Assembly (NCBI GenBank): GCA_016869765.1
Contig: VGES01000010.1
Location: 13,573-77,572, forward strand
Origin: Alphaproteobacteria bacterium
GTDB lineage: Bacteria; Pseudomonadota; Alphaproteobacteria; SHVP01
Direction of reading: 5' to 3'
Length of the DNA: 64,000 bases
In this document: positions 1 through 10,904 of the stretch, piece by piece
Position numbering within the stretch: the first letter of the stretch is position 1
Layout: every line of letters begins with the position of its first letter
Made by a program: the position numbers and the translations under genes
Notes under the pieces: generated by a model
The model's database searches: none
What the model was told of the DNA's origin: nothing
What the model saw: the letters and a program-made list of their open reading frames with translations, nothing else

Positions 1-901
1 GAAACCGCCGCGTCGCGCCCTGCCAGGTGAGGCGGGCGAGTTCCTCCTGCGGCGTGACGCCGCCCGGCACCACCTCGGCCGGATATTCGTAGCGTAGTTC
101 TTCCAGATCGAAGCGGCAGACGGCGGCGATCGCCGCGGTGCGCGCCACGGCCTCGGGGTAGTCGCGGAACAGTCGCGCCATCTCGGCGGCCGGTTTCAGG
201 TGGCGCTCGGCGTTGGGGAGCAGCCGGTAGCCGGCCTCGTCGATCGTGCAGTGTTCGCGGATGCAGGTGAGCACGTCCTGCAGCGCACGGCGTTCGGGCG
301 CGTGATAGTGCACGTCGTTGGTGGCGACGAGCGGCGTGCCGCACGCCTCGGCCAGCGCTGCCAGCAGCACGAGGCGACGGCGGTCATCACCGCGGTACAG
401 AAGACTCGCCGCGAGATAACTGCGCCCGGGAAACGCTGCAGCCACTTGACGCAGGTGTTGGCCGAAGGCGCTCGCGGGGCCGAGCACCGACGGATCGAAC
501 GCGCGTGCGGGATCGTCGAGCGCCTCGGGTGGCAAGGCGATGACGATCTGGCCCTCGCCGTAAGGGGGGAACTCGGACCACGCGAGGTGACACTCGCCCT
601 TGGGCGCGCGGCGCTTGCCCAAGGTGAGAAAACGGGTGAGCCGGCCGTAGGCGGCGCGGTCGGTCGGGTAGCAGAGGACGCTCGGCGCATCGGTGAAATC
701 GAGCCGGACGCCGACCACGAGACGGATGCCGGCTTTCGTGGCGGCGCGGTGGGCGCGAACGACGCCGCCCACCGAGTTGCGATCGGTGATCGCGAGCGCT
801 TTCAGCCCGAGCGCCGCCGCGGTCTCGGCCAGTTCGTCGGCGTGCGAGGCGCCGCGCAAGAAGCTGAAGTTGCTGGTGACCTGCAGCTCGACGTAGTCCA
901 A
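1..901 (-). CDS. dnaE2: Error-prone DNA polymerase DnaE2 (ImuC), N-terminal PHP-domain part; gene continues beyond the left edge
   Basis: Reverse-strand reading from TTG at 901 (GGAGG 4 nt upstream) gives (M)DYVELQVTSNFSFLRGASHADELAETAAALGLKALAITDRNSVGGVVRAHRAATKAGIRLVVG... This is the canonical DnaE2 PHP-domain N-terminus. The frame stays open to position 1, which explains its absence from the complete-ORF track. The 200..1027 + ORF is its antisense shadow. Confidence 0.9.
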   Translation of the reverse strand, partial: MDYVELQVTSNFSFLRGASHADELAETAAALGLKALAITDRNSVGGVVRAHRAATKAGIRLVVGVRLDFTDAPSVLCYPTDRAAYGRLTRFLTLGKRRAPKGECHLAWSEFPPYGEGQIVIALPPEALDDPARAFDPSVLGPASAFGQHLRQVAAAFPGRSYLAASLLYRGDDRRRLVLLAALAEACGTPLVATNDVHYHAPERRALQDVLTCIREHCTIDEAGYRLLPNAERHLKPAAEMARLFRDYPEAVARTAAIAAVCRFDLEELRYEYPAEVVPGGVTPQEELARLTWQGATRRF

Positions 902-918
902 GACGCCTCCCCGATTCA
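896..918. repeat. Degenerate third copy of the imuB-stop/dnaE2-start junction motif (about 17/23 matches to 6523..6545)
   Basis: Minus strand TGAATCGGGGAGGCGTCTTGGAC here versus TGAATCGGGCAGGGCTCATGACC after the imuB stop. The dnaE2 TTG start aligns with the second ATG of the MNRAGLMT leader ORF. Confidence 0.55.
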
Positions 919-1086
919 GCAGTGTGGTGTTTCGCGGCGCAGATCGAAGTCTTCGCGCGGGAAGAAGCAGGTCAAAAAGCGGATGTCGGCCCGGGGCGGT
1001 GGCTTCAACTCACGGGCCCGGAGATAGACCTCTTGGACGACGGCATCACTGCCGCGAATCGGCGGATCGGCGTCGGCCATCCTCAT
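916..1086 (-). CDS. Small ORF (56 aa, MRMADADPPIRGSDAVVQEVYLRARELKPPPRADIRFLTCFFPREDFDLRRETPHC) between P1 and dnaE2; possibly a remnant of a further paralog
   Basis: Its ATG (1086) overlaps the P1 stop as ATGA. A second ATG at 1080 sits 8 nt after GGAG. The stop at 916 lies immediately before the dnaE2 RBS. FLTCFFPRED..FDLRR weakly resembles the FLSIAFFPQGGQWWFRR motif of the paralog family. No TM segment. Confidence 0.3.
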   Translation of the reverse strand: MRMADADPPIRGSDAVVQEVYLRARELKPPPRADIRFLTCFFPREDFDLRRETPHC

Positions 1087-1859
1087 GGCTCCTCGGCGTC
1101 GTCCGGTTTGAGGTGCTCGTCGATCGGCCGCAGCACGCGCAATGCTTCGAACGGGACGCGGACCGGTTCGGGGCCGATCAACCAACGCGTCGTTCGGTCG
1201 TGATAGCGAGAGGCCCGAGCGGCAAAGCTGCCGTCATTGACGCAGTCCGCCCATTCTTCAGCCTCGATGGCGCAAAACTCCGCCCCGAAATCGACGACAC
1301 GACGAAACCACCATTGCCCGCCCTGTGGGAAAAACGCGATGCTCAGAAATCGCTCCCAACCGCAGAGGTATCCCAGATTCGCATGCTCCACGAGAACGCA
1401 GAACTTGAGGACGATCTCGCGGTCGCCGACCCGTGGTGCCCGATTTTCCGCGTAAACGGTGTCACGCTCGGGCGGCCACTGAACGTGCGCCGCGGTCACC
1501 ACCAAGTCTTCGAGCACGGCGTAGGCGACCATCGGATGGTCGCGATAAAAACTGTCTTCGTCTGTTGGCAATTCATCGATCGCACCAATCGCCCTGCATA
1601 CGGAAGGCCATTGCCTGAAGTGGCAGGCGACCCACGTGTCGATCAGACAGGCGGTCGTTTCAGTTTCGCCCAAGCAGGAGCTCGTCGTACCGAGCGGCGA
1701 AAAAATCCGATACGGACTTTCTGGCGTCCACACCGAACCGACGAACTCGGCGCGGGAACGAGCATCACCGATCAACACGCCGGCCAACCAAGCGACCAGC
1801 GTCGTCAGCATCAGCCCAACGATTCCGACGCCAGCGATTCTTGCGATTGGTGATGTCAT
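1083..1859 (-). CDS. Paralog P1: single-pass membrane protein with Cys-rich extracytoplasmic domain (putative immunity-like protein), 258 aa
   Basis: N-terminal hydrophobic helix IAGVGIVGLMLTTLVAWLAGVLI. Family motifs: WTPESPY, GTTSSCLG, ACLIDTWVAC, AYAVLE, LKFC, FLSIAFFPQGGQWWFRR, LRPIDEHLKP. Clear paralog of 3794..4609, 3006..3797 and 4623..5387. Confidence 0.75.
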   Translation of the reverse strand: MTSPIARIAGVGIVGLMLTTLVAWLAGVLIGDARSRAEFVGSVWTPESPYRIFSPLGTTSSCLGETETTACLIDTWVACHFRQWPSVCRAIGAIDELPTDEDSFYRDHPMVAYAVLEDLVVTAAHVQWPPERDTVYAENRAPRVGDREIVLKFCVLVEHANLGYLCGWERFLSIAFFPQGGQWWFRRVVDFGAEFCAIEAEEWADCVNDGSFAARASRYHDRTTRWLIGPEPVRVPFEALRVLRPIDEHLKPDDAEEP

Positions 1860-1867
1860 CGATCGTC

Positions 1868-2625
1868 CTAACCGCCCGCGTCGGCCGTCCGGCGGAACAC
1901 CGTCATAGGCGGGGACTGGACGGCCTCGAACGGAACCAAGCCGACGTGGGGTGACATGTCTCTGAGCTTCGATCCGGCCTGCCGGTCAATCTTCCGCGTC
2001 CGCGAGACGCATATCGCAGGTGAAGAACCATCCGGCGGTATGGTGTACCCAACCGCGATATTCCCAAAGGCCACCACGGCGGAAAAAAACGACACTCACG
2101 AAAACATGCCCTGGGACAGAAGTACCGTTCGAGGTCGGGTTTCATCCAACACAGCTTCAGTGTGACTTCGACGTCACCGGCGCGAGGCTTCTCGAACCAC
2201 GGCTCGAGTTTGTCGATCCGCATCCGGGCGCGAGGGACAACCATGCTCTGTTCAATCACCGCGTACGCCGTGAGCGTGCGTTGCTGCTCCTCGGGCTCAT
2301 ATTCCGGTTCGTAACCGAAGAACGCCAAGGCGCCGGGAGAGGACGGCAGTTGAATGGCGTCGCAGGCCGGCAACCACACCGCATTGGTACACGCCATCCA
2401 CGAAGCGATTGCACAGCGCAATGTTTGGGCACCCCCCACGCACGGGACGGTAGAAGCGGTCGCCGAAACCAATTCAAAACGACTTTTGGGCGTCCAGACG
2501 ACCTCCGGGTCGTTCACTCGCCAGCGATCATCCGGGCGCGTCGTCCAAACCGCGGCCGTGATCGCCGCGACGAACGCGACGATCACGACGACGAACCCAA
2601 CGACCTGCACCGAGCGACGTTTCAC
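1868..2625 (-). pseudogene. Paralog P2, disrupted by two frameshifts; closest to P5
   Basis: The GTG start at 2625 overlaps the stop of the truncated M23 ORF (GTGA). Frame 1 reads VKRRSVQVVGFVVVIVAF...WTPKSRFELVSATASTVPCVGGAQTLRCAIASWMAC...VEVTLKLCWMKPDLERYFCPRACF. Family homology continues in a second frame from about 2100 (VSVVFFRRGGLWEYRGWVHHTAGWFFTC), which stops at 1986-1988. It then continues in a third frame (SKLRDMSPHVGLVPFEAVQSPPMTV) to the stop at 1868. Track ORFs 1903..2658 and 1868..2095 are the pieces. Confidence 0.7.
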
Positions 2626-2939
2626 GGTTGCTCCGCCTGCCAGCGTTTGGTGAGCCATTCCCAGGGATCGAGCAACTTCAGCTTTGGTTTTGGTGTTTGA
2701 AGCTTGCCATCGGATCCGATGGTCGCCTCCGGCCGATCAACTTTCCAAACTTCGACGTGGACATGATTGATGGCACCCCGATACTCCTTGGCGACGCTGA
2801 GGTCCTCAACCACGCCTAAGGGAGTCTCGTGAGCCGTGACACGAAAGCTTGTCTTGTGGGCCGGCGATAGTGGCCCGACATCGGGCGTGTTTTTCCAGAT
2901 CGGCGCCAGCGACCCGGTCATGAGCCCTGCCCGATTCAT
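2622..2939 (-). pseudogene. Truncated M23/LytM-like peptidase copy (105 aa): leader MNRAGLMT.. fused to the last ~75 aa of the M23 domain; lacks the HxxxD motif
   Basis: SFRVTAHETPLGVVEDLSVAKEYRGAINHVHVEVWKV...KLLDPWEWLTKRWQAEQP aligns with SIRVIENVTPIGVVQDLDPKYPEIPNHVHVEVWKT...KLLKAWEWFSERWRSQQP of the full-length protein. The N-terminus equals the leader ORF found after imuB. Confidence 0.7.
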
Positions 2940-2967
2940 GGGAACAGGCCGTGCAGAAACCAGCGCG
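2916..2967. repeat. Direct repeat, 51/52 identical to 6523..6574 (imuB 3' end + stop + leader-ORF start)
   Basis: ggtcatgagccctgcccgattcatgggaacaggccgtgcag[a/g]aaccagcgcg is present at both sites. Weaker in-frame similarity continues about 40 nt further into the leader ORF (AxxWxNxPD). Confidence 0.9.
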
Positions 2968-3005
2968 CTGGCAGCTCGGTCACGTCCGCTTCGATTTGGC
3001 GGCCG
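2936..3005 (-). pseudogene. Orphan imuB 3'-terminal remnant (..GRQIEADVTELPARWFLHGLFP*)
   Basis: The reverse frame ending at TGA 2938..2936 reads ...ELPARWFLHGLFP*. The intact imuB ends ...DAASPRWFLHGLFP*. There is no upstream imuB body because the P3 stop is at 3006. Confidence 0.75.
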
Positions 3006-3797
3006 TTAGTCATCGGCGTTCCCCGAACCAGCGACGGAAAAACGATTCAGGACCGTCAGCGACTTAGGATCGACCCGTTCGAACGGCGGCCCGGACGGAT
3101 AACCGGGAATGCGGTTGTTGATGCGCATCGTCCGGGAAAACGACCGCTCCAGGTGAGTCCAACATTCCGGGTATTCCGGAGAGTAGATCTCGCACAGGAA
3201 ATCGCCGATCTGAACCGTCCAACCGCGATACACCCACGGTCCGCCGTCGCGGAAGAAAAAGACACTCAGCAGCCAATCGTTGACGCAACGATAGGTGTCG
3301 GTCTCATCGTCGATCTCCATCCGGCAAATCTTGACGATGATCTCGACATCGCCAGGTTTCGGGTAGGGTTCGTCGGGATAGCCGGTGAGGGCGGTGCGGC
3401 GGGCCGGCCATGCGACGCCCTTCTTCTCCAGCACCGCATAGGCGTAAATCACTGCGGGCGGATCGAGCGATTTCGTGTCCGGCGCGTCAACCGGGTCGTC
3501 CGCGCTGGGGTAGCGGATACTTCGGCACGCCGGCCGATGACCGAGCCAGTCGCAGGCCAGCCACGTATCCACAGCGCAGTCCAACGTGTGCGGTTCGCCG
3601 ATACAGCGGCTGGTTGCCCCTGATCGCGACAGGAGACGATAAGGGCTTTCCAGAGACCACGCGGTTCGGTGCGCCATCTTCGACAACAGCGCCTGGCTCC
3701 TTGGAATCTGTGCCAACACGCCCCAACCGATAGCCGCCACGAGCGCCGCGAGAACGAACGTCGTGCCGATGACCACGGTCCGGCCGCGAATCGTCAT
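3006..3797 (-). CDS. Paralog P3: single-pass membrane protein with Cys-rich extracytoplasmic domain, 263 aa
   Basis: TM helix VVIGTTFVLAALVAAIGWGVLA. Motifs: WSLESPY, GATSRCIG, LDCAVDTWLAC, AYAVLE, GDVEIIVKIC, LLSVFFFRDGGPWVYRGW. The start ATG overlaps the P4 stop (ATGA). Confidence 0.75.
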   Translation of the reverse strand: MTIRGRTVVIGTTFVLAALVAAIGWGVLAQIPRSQALLSKMAHRTAWSLESPYRLLSRSGATSRCIGEPHTLDCAVDTWLACDWLGHRPACRSIRYPSADDPVDAPDTKSLDPPAVIYAYAVLEKKGVAWPARRTALTGYPDEPYPKPGDVEIIVKICRMEIDDETDTYRCVNDWLLSVFFFRDGGPWVYRGWTVQIGDFLCEIYSPEYPECWTHLERSFSRTMRINNRIPGYPSGPPFERVDPKSLTVLNRFSVAGSGNADD

Positions 3798-4609
3798 CGT
3801 GGCCCCGCTTCTTGCGCTGGCTTCAACCGCTCATCGATGGGTCGCAGAAGCGATCGCGCCGCCTCCGACAATCGGACCGGACGCGACCCGAGGAGCCAAC
3901 GGCGGTCCTCGCCCAGTTCGTCGAGTCGACGCATGGTCCCCGTGAAACTGCCCCCACCCGCGTCGCGACAGTCTTTGGGGACCGTCGCTTCTGGAGGACA
4001 CGTGTGCTCCCACGAAAAAACCAAGTCGAGCTTGCGACGGAAATGCCAGCGATCCCCTACACGAAAAAACGCCACGCTGACGAAGTCGAGGTGTTGGCAA
4101 ATGTGCCCCAGACCTGGCCATTCGGAGAGCCCGCAGATCTTGAGGGCGACCTCGACGTCCCCGGTTTGAGGCAGCTGCACCGGGAGAAAGGGTTCACGGA
4201 CGAACTTGGCTGGAAGGACCACACGTCGGCCATCGTTCACCGTCATCTGTTCGAGGATTTCGTAGGCGACGACCGGATCGGGATCGCGCCATTGCCAGTC
4301 GAAATACAACGATCGACCGGGAAACGGCGGGTGAGCGATCGCGGCACACGGTGTCGGCCAGCGGGTGTTGTGGCAGGCAACCCAGGTATCGACAGCACAG
4401 GCGAGCGTCCGGGAGTCGCCGAGACAGGGGCTCGTCGCACCGAACGTGGCGAACAGCTGATAGCGGCTCGTGGGCGTCCACATCACGCCGAGAAATGGAT
4501 CACGCCGCGTCACATCGGCCATCAACGCCACAGCGAACCAGGCGATGACCCCCGTGAGGGCGATCGCCAGAGCGCTGACCAGCGCAACAGCCCGATTGGA
4601 ATGATGCAT
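3794..4609 (-). CDS. Paralog P4: single-pass membrane protein with Cys-rich extracytoplasmic domain, 271 aa
   Basis: TM helix AVALVSALAIALTGVIAWFAVAL. Motifs: WTPTSRY, GATSPCLG, LACAVDTWVAC, AYEILE, GDVEVALKIC, FVSVAFFRVGDRWHFRR, LLRPIDERLKP (closest to P1). Confidence 0.75.
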   Translation of the reverse strand: MHHSNRAVALVSALAIALTGVIAWFAVALMADVTRRDPFLGVMWTPTSRYQLFATFGATSPCLGDSRTLACAVDTWVACHNTRWPTPCAAIAHPPFPGRSLYFDWQWRDPDPVVAYEILEQMTVNDGRRVVLPAKFVREPFLPVQLPQTGDVEVALKICGLSEWPGLGHICQHLDFVSVAFFRVGDRWHFRRKLDLVFSWEHTCPPEATVPKDCRDAGGGSFTGTMRRLDELGEDRRWLLGSRPVRLSEAARSLLRPIDERLKPAQEAGPR

Positions 4610-4622
4610 CGCGGTTGACCGA

Positions 4623-5387
4623 TCAGGGCTCGGGGAACGAAGTCATCTTCATGGACCGAACGAATTCCCCCGGGATCCACGGAAGATGCGCTGATGGATC
4701 GAAGGATGGCCGCGCGCCGTAACGAAGAATGCGAGACGCGGTCGCCCCAAAAAAATAATGGCACGGCTCGAGATTGGGCTCGCAATCGGCATGCTCATCG
4801 TAATAGTGCCCGCGAAAGACCCAGCGGCCCTCGTGATGGAAAAAGACGATGCTGAAGGTCCGGGGCCCATCGACGCAACGATGCCCCTCGGGCTCGGGTT
4901 CCATCGAGCACGACATCACAGTGATTTCGACGTCACCGACCTGGGGTTTTTCCAACTGATCGTTGACGACGTATAGGGGCGTGCGGGCCGTGATCAGCCT
5001 GCGATCCAATACGGCATAAGCCGTCACCCGCCGTTCCAATTCGGCCTGATACTCCTCGTCATCGAGATTCCAGTCGCGAAATACGATGTAGCGAATCGAT
5101 TGACAGGCGAAATCTCGTTCCGGAAAGGCGCATGCTATCCACGTCGCGATGGCGCACCGTAGGCTTTCCGCACCACCGACACAGGGGATCGTCGAGGCTG
5201 AATAGGATACGAGTTCGAATGGACGGGCCTTGTTTGAAAGGAGACCGATTTGGTCTCGTTCCCGACCTGCGTTAGATCGACCGGAATCATTAGGAGGTAA
5301 CGTTTCGACCGTTACGGTGATTGCCGCGATGAGTGCGACAACTATGCCGACGACAAGCCCAACGGCCTGAAGAGGATGACGCGTCAT
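4623..5387 (-). CDS. Paralog P5: single-pass membrane protein with Cys-rich extracytoplasmic domain, ~254 aa; directly coupled to the M23-like gene
   Basis: The ATG at 5387 overlaps the M23-gene stop (ATGA). The track ORF start at 5426 is probably too long. Sequence: MTRHPLQAVGLVVGIVVALIAAITV..., then PFELVSYSASTIPCVGGAESLRCAIATWIAC, AYAVLD, GDVEITVMSC, FSIVFFHHEGRWVFRG. Confidence 0.75.
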   Translation of the reverse strand: MTRHPLQAVGLVVGIVVALIAAITVTVETLPPNDSGRSNAGRERDQIGLLSNKARPFELVSYSASTIPCVGGAESLRCAIATWIACAFPERDFACQSIRYIVFRDWNLDDEEYQAELERRVTAYAVLDRRLITARTPLYVVNDQLEKPQVGDVEITVMSCSMEPEPEGHRCVDGPRTFSIVFFHHEGRWVFRGHYYDEHADCEPNLEPCHYFFGATASRILRYGARPSFDPSAHLPWIPGEFVRSMKMTSFPEP

Positions 5388-6418
5388 GGTTGCTGCGACC
5401 GCCAACGCTCGCTGAACCACTCCCACGCCTTCAGCAACTTTTTCTTTGGCCCTGTTTTCCAGACTTCGACGTGCACGTGGTTGGGGATCTCCGGGTATTT
5501 TGGATCGAGGTCTTGGACGACCCCGATTGGCGTCACGTTTTCGATGACGCGAATGCTATCTCCCAAGTCCAAGATGTTTCTGAATCCAAGCGTCGCCGGA
5601 TCAACGTAGAAGATCTTTATCTCGTGACCATCGTCGGTCTCGATCTTGACGCCGCAGTAAGGCGAATTGTCTCCATAGGGAGTGGCCTTCGAGAGTTTGC
5701 CACTTATAGGGGCGTACAGAATTTTCCCTGCTTCGACCAACAAGTCGTCACCTTGGTGGCTGTAGGGCTCGTTGCTCTTGGAACGAGTCCGTCGATCGCC
5801 AACTTTGCCGCCACCCCACCGCGGGTGCCATCCACGTCGTTCGGTGTCGCGAAGATGAACCGCCGTTCCGGGTGCCGGGGGTGGAATTTGTGGAACAGGA
5901 TGGACTGTGGGTTGCCTCGCGGGTGAGCGTTTCTGGGGTGGGGTCGGTTTTTCGATCGGCACGGCACTGACCGGCGCGCGCGTCGGCGTCGGAACAGCGG
6001 CCGGGGGACCGGCTTGGGCAAGCTCAATCGGGCGCTCGCGCTCTTCGCCCGCGGTGATCGGCGCTGGGGCGCCGGGCGGGTCGAGCGCGTTTGAGGCCAA
6101 CGTTTCGGGCGCAGGCGGCGCCACCGCCGACAACCCGCGATCGGGATCGCGCACGTCGATCCCGAGATTGGTGAACTCCTGGCCCCAGCGGGTTCCTTGT
6201 TCGGATTGCGGATCGTCACGCGCCGTGAGGTACAGCGCCCGGCCCTGTTGCCAGCGCCAGAACTCGACCGTGTCCGATTGGTGCGGGTTGGCTGCACCGG
6301 TGGCCCATTGGCCGGGCCATTCGGGCGGCACCACGTCGCCGATCAACGGAGGGTTTTCAGGGTCGTTCGCGGCCGTGGCCGGATCGACGGGGGGGAACGG
6401 GTACGAACCACGCGTCAT
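5384..6418 (-). CDS. M23/LytM-family peptidase-like protein (putative peptidoglycan-hydrolase toxin): unknown N-domain + Pro-rich linker + C-terminal M23 domain, ~344 aa
   Basis: C-terminus reads RRGWHPRWGGG...YSHQGDDLLVEAGKILYAPISGKL...IGVVQDL...NHVHVEVW. This matches the M23 signature: R-x-HP pre-motif, H-x-G-x-D (HxxxD), G-x-x-[IV]-x-A-x-x-x-G-x-[LV], HxH. The likely start is the ATG at 6418 with AAGGAG 7 nt upstream, not the track start 6457. No signal peptide or TM helix is evident. Confidence 0.75.
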   Translation of the reverse strand: MTRGSYPFPPVDPATAANDPENPPLIGDVVPPEWPGQWATGAANPHQSDTVEFWRWQQGRALYLTARDDPQSEQGTRWGQEFTNLGIDVRDPDRGLSAVAPPAPETLASNALDPPGAPAPITAGEERERPIELAQAGPPAAVPTPTRAPVSAVPIEKPTPPQKRSPARQPTVHPVPQIPPPAPGTAVHLRDTERRGWHPRWGGGKVGDRRTRSKSNEPYSHQGDDLLVEAGKILYAPISGKLSKATPYGDNSPYCGVKIETDDGHEIKIFYVDPATLGFRNILDLGDSIRVIENVTPIGVVQDLDPKYPEIPNHVHVEVWKTGPKKKLLKAWEWFSERWRSQQP

Positions 6419-6546
6419 GAGGAAGCTCCTTGGTTGGAGAATCCTCCCCCGCACCATCGTGCGGCCCTGCCCTTACTTATAAACCGATCAGGCACGTTTT
6501 CCCAGAACGAGGCGAAGACCCAGGTCATGAGCCCTGCCCGATTCAT
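6415..6546 (-). CDS. Leader ORF (43 aa, MNRAGLMTWVFASFWENVPDRFISKG...) bridging imuB and the M23-like gene
   Basis: Its ATG overlaps the imuB stop (ccATGAat) and its stop overlaps the M23-gene ATG (ctcATGAcg). The first ~22 codons are conserved with the N-terminus of the truncated copy at 2939 (MNRAGLMTGSLAPIWKNTPDV). Whether it is translated is unknown. Confidence 0.4.
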   Translation of the reverse strand: MNRAGLMTWVFASFWENVPDRFISKGRAARWCGGGFSNQGASS

Positions 6547-6574
6547 GGGAACAGGCCGTGCAGGAACCAGCGCG
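6523..6574. repeat. Direct repeat, partner of 2916..2967 (imuB 3' end/junction)
   Basis: See 2916..2967. Contains the last ~10 imuB codons, the stop, and the leader-ORF start. Confidence 0.9.
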
Positions 6575-8150
6575 GCGATGCGGCGTCGGGCGCGTAGAGG
6601 CCGTTGCGGAACAGCCAGAAGCGGGCGCCATCGTCGTCCTCGACGCGGAAATAGTCGCGGGTCTCGCCACGATCGAACAGCGTGGTGGTCGTCGGTCGCC
6701 ACCACTCGGGCGCGATGCGTTCGGGCCCCTCGGCCGTGTGCACGCGGTGCAGCACCGTGCGCCAGCGAAACAACCGCGGCGGCTCGTCGGGCACCGGCGC
6801 CACCACCTCGATCGGCTCGGGTTGGGACAACAGCGCCAGCGGCCGTTCGCGGTTGACGAACCACGGCCGCCCCGGCTGCCAGCGGCGGCGCGGCCCATCG
6901 CCCGCAGCCAGCACCGGGATCGACACCGAGGCGCGTTCGGGGATGAAACTCTCGGACGGCGCCAGGCGCACGACATCCGCCTTGCCGAGTCGATTGGCCA
7001 GGCGATCGACCAGCGGATCGAGGCTTCCCGCCGGCACGCCGCGGCGACGTTTGAGCGCGAGTTGCGCGGCGGCCAGCGGTTCGACCACGGCCGCCTCGAC
7101 CGCCAGCGCGTCGATGCCGAAGCCCGGATCGATGCTCGACAAGTGCTCGTCGAGCAGGCGAAAGAGATGCGTCGCCGTGCGCACCGGCGCGCTGGTGCCG
7201 ATGCGCACCGACGGTCGTTCGCCATCGACGCGATAGACCTGGAAGACGAGCCGCCGCAGCCCCAATTCGTCCTGCTGCAACCGGTAACAAAGCCGCGTCA
7301 ACAACCGGCGCGCCGCCTCGGCGATGTCCTCGGCGCGGCCGATCGGCTCGGCGAACGGCATCACCTCGCGCAGGGGGGCGACGAGCGGACGCGGCGAGAT
7401 CGGCTCGCGCACGCGGCCCAACGCCTGATCGACGCGACTCAAGAGCGTCTCGCCGAAACGGCTCACCAGGGGCCCGCGCGGCAGGTCGAACAGATCGCCG
7501 GCGCGACGCAGGCCCAAGCGTTCGAGCCCGGCGATCATCGTCGTGGGCAGACGCAACGCCGCGATCGGCAAGGGCGCCAGGAACGTCCGCGCGCCGCCCG
7601 GTGCGACGAGGCTCGTGGTCTTGGCCGTGAAGCGTGCCGCCGCCCAGGCCACGCCAAGCGTGTCGGCGACCGCCGCGCGGGCGGCAAAGCCGCGCCAGCG
7701 CAGCCGGGTCACGAGATCCTCGATCAGCGCCGCTTCGCCGCCGAACAGGTGGGCGCAACCACTGACGTCGAGCCACAGCCCGGCGCCGGCGATCGTCGCC
7801 TCGGGGTTCCCGTCGAGCGCGACCCAGGGCGTGTAACGCGTCGCCCAGTCGGCGAGTTTCTCCAGCGCGGCGATGTCGGCTGCCGGATCGGCGAAGGCCA
7901 CCGCGACGTTGGGCCAGATCGCGCGCACGTCGGTGAGCGGCATTCCGGGCAACACGCCGTGACTGGCGAGCTCATGATCGGCCGCGGCGACGCGCAGCGT
8001 GTTCTGTTCGCGAACGACCGTGACTTGGATTCGGCCGGGAGCGCGGGCGCCGTCAGGCGACGGCGCGCCCGCCAGCCGGTCGATCGCGAAGTTCGGCAAC
8101 CACAGCGAGACCACCCGGGTCTCGCCGGTACGCGGGGTCGTGGGGGTCAT
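6543..8150 (-). CDS. imuB: ImuB, Y-family polymerase-like subunit of the SOS mutasome
   Basis: 535 aa. N-terminus ...RVVSLWLPNFAIDRL and C-terminus PRWFLHGLFP are typical of ImuB. It lies downstream of imuA. The long + strand ORF 6558..8285 and the - ORF 6415..7776 are shadows. Confidence 0.9.
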   Translation of the reverse strand: MTPTTPRTGETRVVSLWLPNFAIDRLAGAPSPDGARAPGRIQVTVVREQNTLRVAAADHELASHGVLPGMPLTDVRAIWPNVAVAFADPAADIAALEKLADWATRYTPWVALDGNPEATIAGAGLWLDVSGCAHLFGGEAALIEDLVTRLRWRGFAARAAVADTLGVAWAAARFTAKTTSLVAPGGARTFLAPLPIAALRLPTTMIAGLERLGLRRAGDLFDLPRGPLVSRFGETLLSRVDQALGRVREPISPRPLVAPLREVMPFAEPIGRAEDIAEAARRLLTRLCYRLQQDELGLRRLVFQVYRVDGERPSVRIGTSAPVRTATHLFRLLDEHLSSIDPGFGIDALAVEAAVVEPLAAAQLALKRRRGVPAGSLDPLVDRLANRLGKADVVRLAPSESFIPERASVSIPVLAAGDGPRRRWQPGRPWFVNRERPLALLSQPEPIEVVAPVPDEPPRLFRWRTVLHRVHTAEGPERIAPEWWRPTTTTLFDRGETRDYFRVEDDDGARFWLFRNGLYAPDAASPRWFLHGLFP

Positions 8151-8892
8151 GCGTCATGCTGGCGCCTGGGCGCCACTCCAGTTGCCACGCGCGGGACGGA
8201 CCGCCGCGGCAATAATCGAGATCGACCTGCCAACGCGGGGCATGGTCGGAACCGGTGCGGGCCGGCGACACGCGCCAGCGGGTGAGCGCGGCGGTGGTCG
8301 CGGCGCTGGCGGTCGTGACGCCGACGCGCGGCAAACGATCGAGCAGGAAGGCGAGCGCGCCGGTGGTTTCGGCCGCGAGTTGCAGCCGCCGGTTGGCGGT
8401 GAGGCTGACGCGTGCGGCTTCGCCGACGACGGCGGCAACCGCGGCGCTGCGCAGCCCCTCCTCCATCGCCCACAGCATGTCCTGGGTGTTGCGGGCCCGG
8501 GCGATAACCAGGCGATCGGGGGCGATGCCCCAATGGGCGAGGCCAGCGCCGTACAGCTCGCCCGCTTCGTTGGCCGCGTGTGCGGTCTGGCACCACAGCA
8601 CCTGACCGCCGTCGGCCACCACCGCCGACAACACCGCCGCCAGAAATCCGAACGCCGCCTGGCCGCCGGTCATTTCGTGCAAGGCGCCACGCGGCAGGCC
8701 GCCCCACGGCAAGCCCGGATCGAGCCCCGGCGCCAGCGGCAGGGCCGCGTGCCGGCCCTGGCCCCGCTCGATCGCGCCGATGCTGGCCCGCAGCCGGGCG
8801 AGCGCCTGCCCTCGCTCCGCTCGGTCGCGGACCGGGGCGGGCGGCAGAGATGCCAATTCGCCCCTGTCCTGCAGGGTTGCCGCCAACGCCAT
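8053..8892 (-). CDS. imuA: ImuA, RecA/SulA-like SOS mutagenesis protein
   Basis: 279 aa. ...GLPWGGLPRGALHEMTG...AAFGFLAAVL...VLWC is the ImuA-type degenerate RecA-fold core. It is the first gene behind the LexA boxes and overlaps imuB by 98 nt. Confidence 0.85.
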   Translation of the reverse strand: MALAATLQDRGELASLPPAPVRDRAERGQALARLRASIGAIERGQGRHAALPLAPGLDPGLPWGGLPRGALHEMTGGQAAFGFLAAVLSAVVADGGQVLWCQTAHAANEAGELYGAGLAHWGIAPDRLVIARARNTQDMLWAMEEGLRSAAVAAVVGEAARVSLTANRRLQLAAETTGALAFLLDRLPRVGVTTASAATTAALTRWRVSPARTGSDHAPRWQVDLDYCRGGPSRAWQLEWRPGASMTHDPHDPAYRRDPGGLAVVAELRDRPAGGRAVA

Positions 8893-8916: not shown

Positions 8917-8942
8917 GTTCTGTAATTGTTCTTGTTATGTTC
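8917..8942. promoter_or_regulatory. Triple alphaproteobacterial LexA-type box GTTC-N7-GTTC-N7-GTTC upstream of imuA
   Basis: GTTCtgtaattGTTCttgttatGTTC lies 25-50 nt upstream of the imuA start, in a locally AT-rich stretch. It matches the GTTC-N7-GTTC direct-repeat SOS box known from Alphaproteobacteria. Confidence 0.75.
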
Positions 8943-9451: not shown

Positions 9452-10213
<762 letters not shown>

Positions 10214-10278
10214 TCATTCGACCGGGTTCAACGCCCCCGCTTCCGGCTGATTGGCTGCAACGCGCCGCAACGAAGCGT

Positions 10279-10578
10279 CTATTCCTCCGGCAGCCGGCTA
10301 CGGACATCCATTCTCTGGTGAAGAACACGGAGAACCAGGATCGATGTCCCGGTCTCCCGGAAGAAAATGACGTGCCTTCCGCAATCCAAACTTCGCAATC
10401 CACCCGCGACATCATCACGCCGCCGAGCGGCACCTGTGTTCTCACGCAATCGAAACAGGCATTGGCGCAAGGTCAAAAGGTATTGCCGACGCTGGGCGTC
10501 GCCCCACTGCTCTATCGTGTAGCGTGATATTTCTCTGAGGTCGCGTCTCGCCGAGTCCGCGACAACGAGCTCTTTCAT
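10279..10578 (-). CDS. parE: ParE/RelE-family type II toxin
   Basis: 99 aa. ...ARRDLREISRYTIEQWGDAQRRQYL...VIFFRETGTSILVLRVLHQRMD is typical ParE. It overlaps the upstream antitoxin by 4 nt. Confidence 0.8.
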   Translation of the reverse strand: MKELVVADSARRDLREISRYTIEQWGDAQRRQYLLTLRQCLFRLRENTGAARRRDDVAGGLRSLDCGRHVIFFRETGTSILVLRVLHQRMDVRSRLPEE

Positions 10579-10835
10579 CGATCGACGAATAGAGCTTCAA
10601 AATCCTCCGGACTCTCGACCCGAGTTCCCCTACCCGCCTCGATATCGGCGTCGCCCTTCGCCAGTTCTTCGCGAAGCCGGGCGACCTTCAGCGCCTGCAC
10701 TTCGTCATGCTCTTGCAACAGGCGCAGCGCCTCTCGTACCACGTCACTTTCGTCGCGATACAAGCCCGATTGAACCTTCTGGCGGACGAGATCTTCGAGT
10801 TTTGGTGTGAGCGAGACTTTCATGTTGCTGACCAT
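10575..10835 (-). CDS. parD: ParD-type (ribbon-helix-helix) antitoxin
   Basis: 86 aa. VSLTPKLEDLVRQKVQSGLYRDESDVVREALRLLQE is the ParD4/CopG-like motif. The start may instead be the ATG at 10823. Confidence 0.8.
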   Translation of the reverse strand: MVSNMKVSLTPKLEDLVRQKVQSGLYRDESDVVREALRLLQEHDEVQALKVARLREELAKGDADIEAGRGTRVESPEDFEALFVDR

Positions 10836-10904
10836 GCACCCGAACCACGTCGACGAGGGTACCCCGACGTGCCGCGCCCTTCAACGCGCCCCAAGCAGAA
10901 GACG

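Follow-up and report, generated by a model that had tools for sequence, protein, structure and literature searches.

M23-domain effectors of type VI secretion systems (T6SS) have been described together with their immunity genes, for example the Tpe groups of Acinetobacter baumannii (PMC6833914), and the Gram-positive M23 bacteriocins include lysostaphin with Lif and zoocin A with Zif (PMC9662197). LECT2, a vertebrate secreted signalling protein, has no peptidase activity (PMC9662197). SOS control is known for colicins and for bacteriocin-immunity operons, and the dinB-yafN-yafO-yafP operon of Escherichia coli carries a toxin-antitoxin within an SOS translesion-polymerase operon (PMC9578287). 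The locus presented here lies in a 64,000-nucleotide stretch of alphaproteobacterial DNA (the window; contig VGES01000010.1, positions 13,573 to 77,572), where about 5.6 kb of DNA, including a gene for an M23-like protein and five paralogous genes for Cys-rich, membrane-anchored proteins (P1 to P5), separates imuB from dnaE2 in the SOS mutagenesis cassette imuA-imuB-dnaE2.

In contact-dependent growth inhibition (CDI; cdiA-CT/cdiI) and Rhs loci, displaced and truncated toxin 3' fragments and immunity genes are found downstream of the active module, while colicin M with Cmi and pesticin with Pim are cell-wall bacteriocins with membrane-anchored periplasmic immunity. The reading favoured here, which we regard as evenly balanced between right and wrong, is that the insert is a horizontally acquired toxin-immunity locus of two stacked homologous cassettes that landed at the imuB/dnaE2 stop/start overlap.

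Two homologous cassettes between imuB and dnaE2

The SOS operator, the host genes, the open reading frames (ORFs) of the insert and the repeats at its junctions are arranged as follows.

8917..8942, plus strand: triple GTTC-N7-GTTC-N7-GTTC, an alphaproteobacterial-type LexA (SOS) box; two overlapping perfect matches
8892..8053, minus strand: imuA; NCBIfam ImuA_translesion, E 1.5e-19, below the model cutoff
8150/8114..6543, minus strand: imuB; Pfam IMS and IMS_C, 39-50% identity to 80 ImuB loci
6574..6487, minus strand: left junction repeat (direct repeat D1), formed by the last ~32 nt of imuB, a 9-mer (6545-6537) and the start of the leader
6546..6415, minus strand: leader ORF, 43 aa (MNRAGLMTWVFASFWENVPD...); no family match, ATGA overlaps to imuB and to the M23 gene
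6418..5384, minus strand: M23-like gene, 344 aa; ATG with an AAGGAG ribosome-binding site, LECT2-like C-terminal domain
5387..4623, minus strand: P5; N-terminal anchor, 8 Cys, ATGA overlap with the stop of the M23 gene
4609..3794, minus strand: P4; paralog nearest P1 (38% identity, E 3e-53)
3797..3006, minus strand: P3; paralog, AlphaFold2 model with a transmembrane (TM) helix and an NTF2-like alpha+beta domain
2967..2880, minus strand: middle junction repeat, with the imuB 3' end duplicated at ~2968-2940 (one mismatch), followed by the 9-mer (2938-2930) and the leader's beginning
2939..2622, minus strand: M23t, truncated remnant of an M23 gene, 105 aa; joins the leader start in frame to the C-terminal end of M23
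2658..1903, minus strand: P2; paralog nearest P5, frameshift near 2100-2116, pseudogene
1859..1083, minus strand: P1; intact paralog
1086..916, minus strand: small ORF, 54-56 aa; ATGA overlap with the P1 stop, no significant family match
918..899, minus strand: right junction, formed by the 9-mer (918-910), a GGAGG ribosome-binding site (909-905) and the dnaE2 TTG (901-899)
TTG at 901, leaving the window at 1, minus strand: 5' part of dnaE2 (imuC); Pfam PHP, tblastn matches to dnaE2 in 77 loci

Only three copies of the 9-mer TGAATCGGG exist in the 64 kb, one precisely at each junction, and the insert is bounded by it as a 9-bp direct repeat. The middle 88 nt (2967-2880) are 84% identical to the left repeat (6574-6487), the first ~20 codons of the leader recurring at 2939-2880, and a duplicate of the imuB 3' end heads each cassette. 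At the other end of the insert the stop codon of the small ORF (TGA, 918-916) falls within the right-hand 9-mer, which restores behind this ORF the stop and ribosome-binding site inferred for dnaE2 behind imuB. Judging from the junctions of relatives and the right-hand junction sequence, the native junction would have read ...CTGTTCCCATGAATCGGGGAGGCGTCTTGGAC, in which the imuB stop is followed by a GGAGG ribosome-binding site and then by the TTG of dnaE2.

Gene order is conserved across the middle repeat, with M23 corresponding to M23t, P5 to P2 (38% identity) and P4 to P1, and therefore the insert consists of two homologous cassettes stacked head to tail, of which the distal one has decayed. 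Cassette A holds the leader ORF, the M23-like gene, P5, P4 and P3, and the decayed cassette B holds the M23 remnant, the frameshifted P2, P1 and the small ORF. Because the junction repeat is 84% conserved at the nucleotide level versus ~38-43% amino acid identity for the cassette proteins, the stacking of a second, diverged cassette through imuB-anchored recombination would fit better than an old simple tandem duplication; if this is true, the duplicated imuB 3' end is a record of cassette stacking and displacement. Neither a transposase or integrase gene nor terminal inverted repeats or attC-like sites were found in the insert ORFs or at the insert ends, and a transposon, an integron or an integrative element was rejected as the present structure since recombinase, inverted repeats and attC-like sites are all missing.

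The junction was compared with 80 imuB loci from species-representative genomes, in 77 of which dnaE2 could be placed. All matches are from Alphaproteobacteria, mostly Rhodospirillales-like metagenome-assembled genomes, and the best ImuB identity is only 50%; the host thus lacks a close relative among sequenced genomes. About 68 of the 77 relatives have an imuB-dnaE2 gap of at most 50 nt, many of them with an ATGA stop/start overlap, and the compact junction is thus lacking in the window, where the gap is 5,641 nt. The largest other gaps are 1,133 nt (L005), 745 nt (L006) and 655 nt (L034). The last is filled by an ORF of 193 aa whose match to IS200/RAYT-like (Y1_Tnp) proteins is weak (L034:11656-12237). 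L005 and L006 carry a FitA-like RHH antitoxin and a PIN toxin between imuB and dnaE2, on the operon strand; the GC content of these inserts (L005:6137-7206, L006:5062-5723) is below that of their own loci and the PIN stop abuts the dnaE2 ATG. With these two VapBC-type pairs the imuB-dnaE2 junction has taken up toxin-antidote modules more than once. Homologues of the M23 protein or the paralogs are absent from all 80 related imuB loci, and none of the other Cys-rich family loci examined lies near imuB or dnaE2; among the compared loci an M23 array between these genes is unique to this organism.

Base composition also sets the insert apart, with GC at 0.54-0.65 across most of it versus 0.70-0.75 in the flanks, the exception being the Pro-rich 5' part of the M23 gene (~0.70), and GC3 at 0.62-0.75 in the insert genes versus 0.84-0.88 in imuA, imuB and dnaE2. 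An earlier note, made from the sequence without database searches, had reported that imuA, imuB and dnaE2 share one orientation with about 5.6 kb inserted before dnaE2, that such cassettes are normally compact, that every insert gene lies on the operon strand, that two small ORFs and a truncated second M23 copy are among them and that the composition differs. This description agrees with the present results: all of these genes are on the minus strand, the small ORFs are the leader and the ORF at 1086..916, and the truncated copy is M23t, of which only the last ~75 aa are homologous to M23 (43% identity, E 4e-15), the HVHVE motif being kept and HxxxD lost. The note had also proposed a horizontal, accessory origin and had reckoned with the opposite, a gene set invariant among relatives; with none of the 80 loci carrying the genes, and with GC and GC3 both lower in the insert, horizontal origin and accessory status are supported. 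Its statement that it knew of no description of such a locus in the mutagenesis operon has to be set beside the dinB-yafNOP precedent and the VapBC-type modules at the same junction.

A second islet of low GC (0.585-0.625) is located at 10200-10850 of the window, ~1.4 kb upstream of imuA, and contains a ParD-type antitoxin gene (10835-10575, minus strand; Pfam E 2e-7) and a 69-aa ORF without a match.

The M23-like protein and its Cys-rich partners

The M23-like protein comprises a Pro-rich N-terminal region of ~190 aa followed by a LECT2-like M23 domain at the C-terminus, with the motifs GWHPRW, HQGDD (5758-5744), FYVDP (5611-5597) and HVHVE (5479-5465). Among PDB sequences LECT2 was the sole match to the C-terminal 171 aa (E 1e-6), and a family profile combining the window domain with 13 homologues from metagenomes matched LECT2 at E 1e-19 and 9gy1, LytU, lysostaphin, LytM, ShyA and Csd-type M23 peptidases at 2e-7 to 1e-3. 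The window protein alone reached 14.8 bits with Pfam PF01551, whose gathering cutoff is 28.7 (E 0.035; positions 2-91 of the 96 in the profile were covered), while homologues matching the window domain at E 1e-13 to 1e-21 exceed this cutoff (34-54 bits). Because of these homologues and the LECT2 and M23 profile matches, homology to the M23 fold appears to be established transitively. The zinc ligands H221 and D225 (in HQGDD) and H316 are present, H314 being the first His of HxH, and the ligands are invariant or nearly so in the 15-sequence family alignment. The earlier identification of an M23/LytM-like gene, for which a Pfam match and intact zinc ligands had been named as checks, is supported by motifs, ligands and profile homology; it falls short in that the protein does not pass the Pfam threshold by itself and that a mid-domain His, considered below, is replaced.

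In 148 fetched loci no relatives were found for the first 173 aa of the M23 protein, for the 54-aa ORF or for the beginning of M23t, and a word-indexed search of 5.8 billion proteins with the full M23 protein returned only its own frameshifted allele. Elsewhere, LECT2-like M23 domains were seen in TM-anchored DUF8155 + Peptidase_M23 proteins in ordinary chromosomal context (L148:8001-8723 and L149:8001-8858; P0104 and P0111), and a 155-aa LECT2-like M23 protein (L151:8001-8468) was seen in a phage-like contig with co-directional genes lacking Pfam matches, beside an N6/N4 methyltransferase.

The family profile also matches phage internal proteins that carry M23 domains. Together with the occurrence of one LECT2-like M23 protein in that phage-like contig and with matches to PHROG metallo-endopeptidases at E about 1e-3, this would be expected if the locus were a phage-derived lysis or superinfection-exclusion module, pairing a virion- or endolysin-type M23 protein with a periplasmic blocker. 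Such an origin is very improbable: motif scans of the 2.9 million viral contigs of IMG/VR recovered neither the Cys-rich family nor the LECT2-like M23 group, no structural match was found in BFVD, and no phage genes, integrase or holin are present in or near the insert. After two IMG/VR scans without relatives, phage origin was rejected.

No hydrophobic segment (maximum KD19 0.83) and no export signal were detected in the M23-like protein. This bears on a further possibility, that in the SOS response an M23/LytM-type factor and its membrane regulators work on the envelope of the cell that makes them, for instance in blocking division, in repair or in a controlled lysis. M23-fold proteins are often autolysins or regulators such as EnvC and NlpD (PMC9662197), the related DUF8155-M23 proteins look housekeeping and the locus does sit within an SOS operon. 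However, a protein with neither signal peptide nor anchor has no Sec route into its own periplasm, all 80 relatives lack the locus, the composition is foreign, and diverged paralogs, a truncated copy and homologues with polymorphic N-termini fit conflict systems better; an endogenous remodelling role is accordingly considered quite unlikely.

The paralogs P1 to P5 are 27-38% identical in pairwise comparison (E 1e-14 to 3e-53). Those that are intact have 254-271 aa, one strong N-terminal hydrophobic segment (2.1-2.95) and 8 Cys at conserved positions, from which a periplasmic, N-terminally anchored location is predicted. In P2 the tblastn alignment shifts frame, with a stop near 1989. Five single-pass Cys-rich membrane paralogs of no recognised family had been proposed in the earlier note; family, anchors and Cys were all recovered, as was the lack of any significant match in Pfam, NCBIfam, PHROGs or PADLOC, and the count has to be corrected to four intact genes and one frameshifted pseudogene. 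When a five-paralog profile was run against representatives of about 15 billion proteins, the only close matches were the window's own genes, followed by about 90 remote relatives with the common motif ATSxCIGxPxTPxCAxETxxAC...LC, which are secreted proteins of 160-200 aa or contain 2-4 tandem copies of a ~140-aa domain. The tandem-domain members (2-4 copies behind one signal peptide) include P0007, P0008, P0012, P0019 and P0024. A 29-sequence paralog alignment used in a word-indexed search found only 4 proteins. A holin/endolysin lysis cassette was considered as well and rejected, the partner family being represented elsewhere mostly by soluble secreted 160-200 aa proteins and not by holins.

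An AlphaFold2 model of P3 has a mean pLDDT of 70.8 (core about 85-95) and shows a long N-terminal helix, then two helices packed on a curved four-stranded sheet. Foldseek searches with this model gave weak NTF2-like matches (E 0.03-0.3), namely the ARC6 intermembrane domain, VirB8, the CaMKII hub and SnoaL/scytalone-dehydratase, which suggests that the paralogs may belong to the NTF2-like fold class. The P3 model had no structural match in BFVD, and the fold search in PDB and BFVD did not connect it to any immunity family already known.

The frameshift in P2, the truncation of M23t and a polymorphic indel within the M23 gene (see below), together with the near lack of close relatives of the window proteins among 5.8 billion proteins, could also mean that the insert is non-functional passenger DNA, an old insertion in decay that is kept only because dnaE2 is transcribed through it. 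This is highly unlikely: although they are only 27-38% identical, four paralogs (254-271 aa) still have open frames, hydrophobic anchors and conserved Cys, implying long purifying selection, and the stop/start overlaps have been kept throughout.

A recurrent partnership between the two protein families emerged from a metagenome scan with the Cys-rich family motif, which yielded 63 loci. An M23 homologue (E down to 1e-20) adjoins the Cys-rich gene in 16 of these, at gaps of 1-212 nt; counted against the 48 loci in which 400 nt or more follow downstream, the figure is 15, and about 11 distinct sequences are represented. The adjoining M23 proteins lack signal peptides and have unrelated N-termini (PG_binding_1-like, long charged low-complexity, or with a phage-like INPAEAKLL start), the M23 domain lying C-terminal to varied N-termini in L086, L146 (PG_binding_1-like), L090, L102, L125, L142 and L150. 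L090:5575-10159 has two Cys-rich genes, each followed by a convergent gene for a putative wall hydrolase, one with a LECT2-like M23 domain and one with a weak GH108 match, and the two hydrolases have a common middle region (VIADFKAKQQQG...). L150:2-2872 has two consecutive toxin genes with a common N-terminal region of ~100 aa, ending in a canonical M23 and a LECT2-like M23 domain respectively and each followed by a small lipoprotein or secreted-protein gene of other families, in what seems a clear polymorphic-toxin arrangement. In L087 the pair is beside genes that resemble, by eye, a serine recombinase and a ParB-like gene.

M23/Cys-rich pairing with varied N-termini is the architecture of polymorphic toxin-immunity systems, and three of their hallmarks were found: a C-terminal domain combined with varied N-termini, a recurrent adjacent partner, and an orphan fragment with extra partner genes. 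In the 64 kb window neither a domain for trafficking or secretion nor secretion-system genes beside the locus were recognised. The toxin/immunity layout proposed in the earlier note is thus supported in part, by recurrent pairing, varied N-termini, orphan modules and a signal-less toxin candidate opposite anchored partners; the missing trafficking domain and His, the P2 pseudogene and the frameshifted toxin alleles limit this support.

Predicted expression, population variants and a proposed model for the locus

The LexA triple box is placed 25-50 nt upstream of the imuA ATG and agrees with the Caulobacter SOS box consensus GTTCN7GTTC (PMC9578287), and imuA, imuB and dnaE2 follow it in the co-orientation of a mutagenesis cassette. 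The operator before imuA consists of two overlapping perfect GTTC-N7-GTTC sites and not of a single box. No LexA box stands directly before the M23-like gene, the perfect boxes being 2.5 kb upstream at the imuA promoter, and the counts of terminator-like and promoter-like sites within the insert are at chance level and hence uninformative. The leader ORF begins with an ATG that overlaps the imuB stop (TGA, 6545-6543), and ATGA overlaps are found at imuB/leader, leader/M23, M23/P5, P4/P3, M23t/P2 and P1/small ORF. Given the common strand, the ATGA overlaps and the read-through needed for dnaE2 expression, the insert is most likely co-transcribed from the LexA-controlled imuA promoter and would be induced by DNA damage like the colicins.

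The favoured toxin-immunity reading can be cast as a model. The toxin candidate would be the LECT2-like M23 metallopeptidase-fold domain carried on a signal-less Pro-rich protein, and the five paralogs would form the immunity family, each with one inner-membrane helix and an NTF2-like domain with four probable disulfides facing the periplasm, where M23 toxin coming in would be neutralised by them. Cassette A (M23-P5-P4-P3) would be the current module and cassette B an older, displaced orphan module keeping the upstream homology (imuB 3' end and leader) that permitted stacking. Upon DNA damage LexA would leave the imuA promoter and transcription would proceed through imuA, imuB, the insert and dnaE2, with chains of ATGA overlaps coupling translation from imuB to leader to M23 to P5 and again at the later junctions. 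Lacking a signal, the M23 protein would be harmless in the cytoplasm of its producer and would act after release or delivery to the periplasm of another cell; the membrane-anchored paralogs would protect the producer and its kin, and the diverged extra paralogs and orphan cassette would widen this protection against variant toxins.

Several observations weigh against this model. The mid-domain catalytic His (equivalent to LytM His260 on the 'Y-x-H-L' strand) is replaced in the sequence FYVDP, so peptidase activity should not be assumed; the position is variable in the alignment of the window protein's family (K, D, E, T, S, H, A), and LECT2, a 'degenerate' and catalytically inactive M23 protein, also lacks this His (PMC9662197). 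Hydrolase activity of the domain is best called plausible. Searches of the N-terminal 190 aa with Pfam, NCBIfam and PADLOC found no domain of any kind, whether PAAR, Rhs, MIX, LXG or colicin-type translocation, no secretion-system genes were found within the window, and the AlphaFold2 model of the M23 protein (from a 2-row alignment) has a pLDDT of 40.6. In 15 of the 16 paired metagenome loci the M23 and Cys-rich genes are convergent and not co-directional, an atypical orientation for toxin and immunity genes, and 47 of the 63 Cys-rich loci have ordinary neighbours (ABC transporter, IclR and TPR genes). The LECT2-like M23 domain is also present in the apparently housekeeping, TM-anchored DUF8155-M23 proteins, and since these stand in ordinary contexts the LECT2-like branch is not confined to toxin-like proteins. 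Finally, a 1-nt deletion splits the M23 ORF in all four other assemblies of the same population.

These four contigs (two from JGI metagenomes, two from Logan) are 99.97% identical to the window and lack the A at window position 5934, reading CCCCGAAACG versus CCCCAGAAACG in the window (compare L001:10485). The M23 gene is inactivated in them, as no start codon is in frame upstream of HQGDD. The context of position 5934 is not a homopolymer and the four independent assemblies concur; either the window would hold a rarer intact M23 allele or one of the two versions would be an assembly error. With the toxin frameshifted in these four assemblies, its second copy cut to 75 aa, four paralogs intact with all 8 Cys and most family members elsewhere alone, without a toxin neighbour, the locus might instead be a defensive immunity island, in which periplasmic inhibitors guard against the M23-type toxins of others and the cell's own toxin is vestigial or being lost. 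That view is rather unlikely, as the 344-aa toxin ORF of the window is intact, with its zinc ligands and its ATGA link to P5, and P2 itself is decaying, so that the immunity genes are not uniformly preserved. In one Logan contig (L004:1-1790, SRR7008010) the 3' end of P3 is joined to the leader and M23 through a hybrid junction repeat, corresponding to 3203-2889 and 6574-5020 of the window; such a junction would be expected if cassette A had formed a circle or been amplified in tandem, and might also result from a mis-join across the 41-nt exact repeat.

A wider proposal, offered tentatively and with more doubt than belief, is that the imuB/dnaE2 ATGA overlap is a recurrent landing pad for toxin-antidote modules, providing LexA control and, because dnaE2 can be expressed only by read-through, near-guaranteed retention; that the module here is a colicin-like M23 weapon triggered by DNA damage; and that the 8-Cys NTF2-like proteins are undescribed, widespread and specific inhibitors of LECT2-like M23 domains. 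If the toxin-immunity reading is true, interbacterial antagonism is tied to the SOS mutagenesis operon, with error-prone repair, a cell-wall weapon and its antidotes expressed from one promoter. The paralogs would then be candidates for a new family, covered by no Pfam or NCBIfam model, of immunity proteins or inhibitors directed at LECT2-like M23 domains, and would give a handle on the role of the bacterial relatives of vertebrate LECT2. Furthermore, taken with the VapBC-type inserts in two relatives, the imuB-dnaE2 junction would tolerate, and perhaps attract, selfish toxin-antidote modules.

Comparison with known systems

The locus resembles effector-immunity or bacteriocin-immunity systems with orphan modules, and cannot be shown to belong to a named system because it has no secretion marker, a new partner family and a missing catalytic residue. 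As in the M23 effectors of the T6SS, a C-terminal M23-fold domain is found on a signal-less protein with an adjacent periplasm-facing partner, extra immunity genes and orphan remnants. Unlike those loci, no VgrG, PAAR, Hcp or other T6SS marker is nearby, the domain belongs to a LECT2-like branch with one catalytic His missing, and the partner is outside the described immunity families in Pfam, NCBIfam and PADLOC. With the orphan arrays of CDI and Rhs loci it has in common a displaced toxin 3' fragment that keeps upstream sequence usable as recombination homology, although here the conserved upstream sequence is the imuB 3' end and leader and not a toxin N-terminal region, and neither CdiB/CdiA nor an Rhs core is present.

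Lysostaphin/Lif and zoocin A/Zif likewise combine an M23-fold weapon, as proposed here, with a linked immunity gene, but their immunity is a FemABX-like modification of the cross-bridge and their enzymes are secreted by way of signal peptides. LECT2 itself (PDB 5B0H, 9NON) is the nearest solved structure by sequence, with the HxGxD and HxH ligands and the loss of the mid-domain His in common, whereas the bacterial proteins carry N-termini of various kinds and have a bacterial partner in the periplasm.

The SOS-controlled bacteriocins offer a different likeness. Colicin M/Cmi and pesticin/Pim share with the locus LexA control (inferred here), a periplasmic or cell-wall target, anchored, periplasm-facing immunity and a probably disordered toxin N-terminus. 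Here, however, it is the host's imuA promoter, not the toxin gene, that has the LexA box, the setting is chromosomal and within another operon, and no lysis or release gene, receptor-binding domain or TonB/Tol box is recognised at the locus. The dinB-yafNOP operon matches it in setting, as a toxin-antidote module in a LexA-controlled translesion operon, and so do the FitA-like/PIN pairs of L005 and L006. The type II pairs of these operons are intracellular, whereas a periplasmic antidote and a toxin with a cell-wall-enzyme fold, as predicted here, would follow a logic of conflict between cells rather than of addiction.

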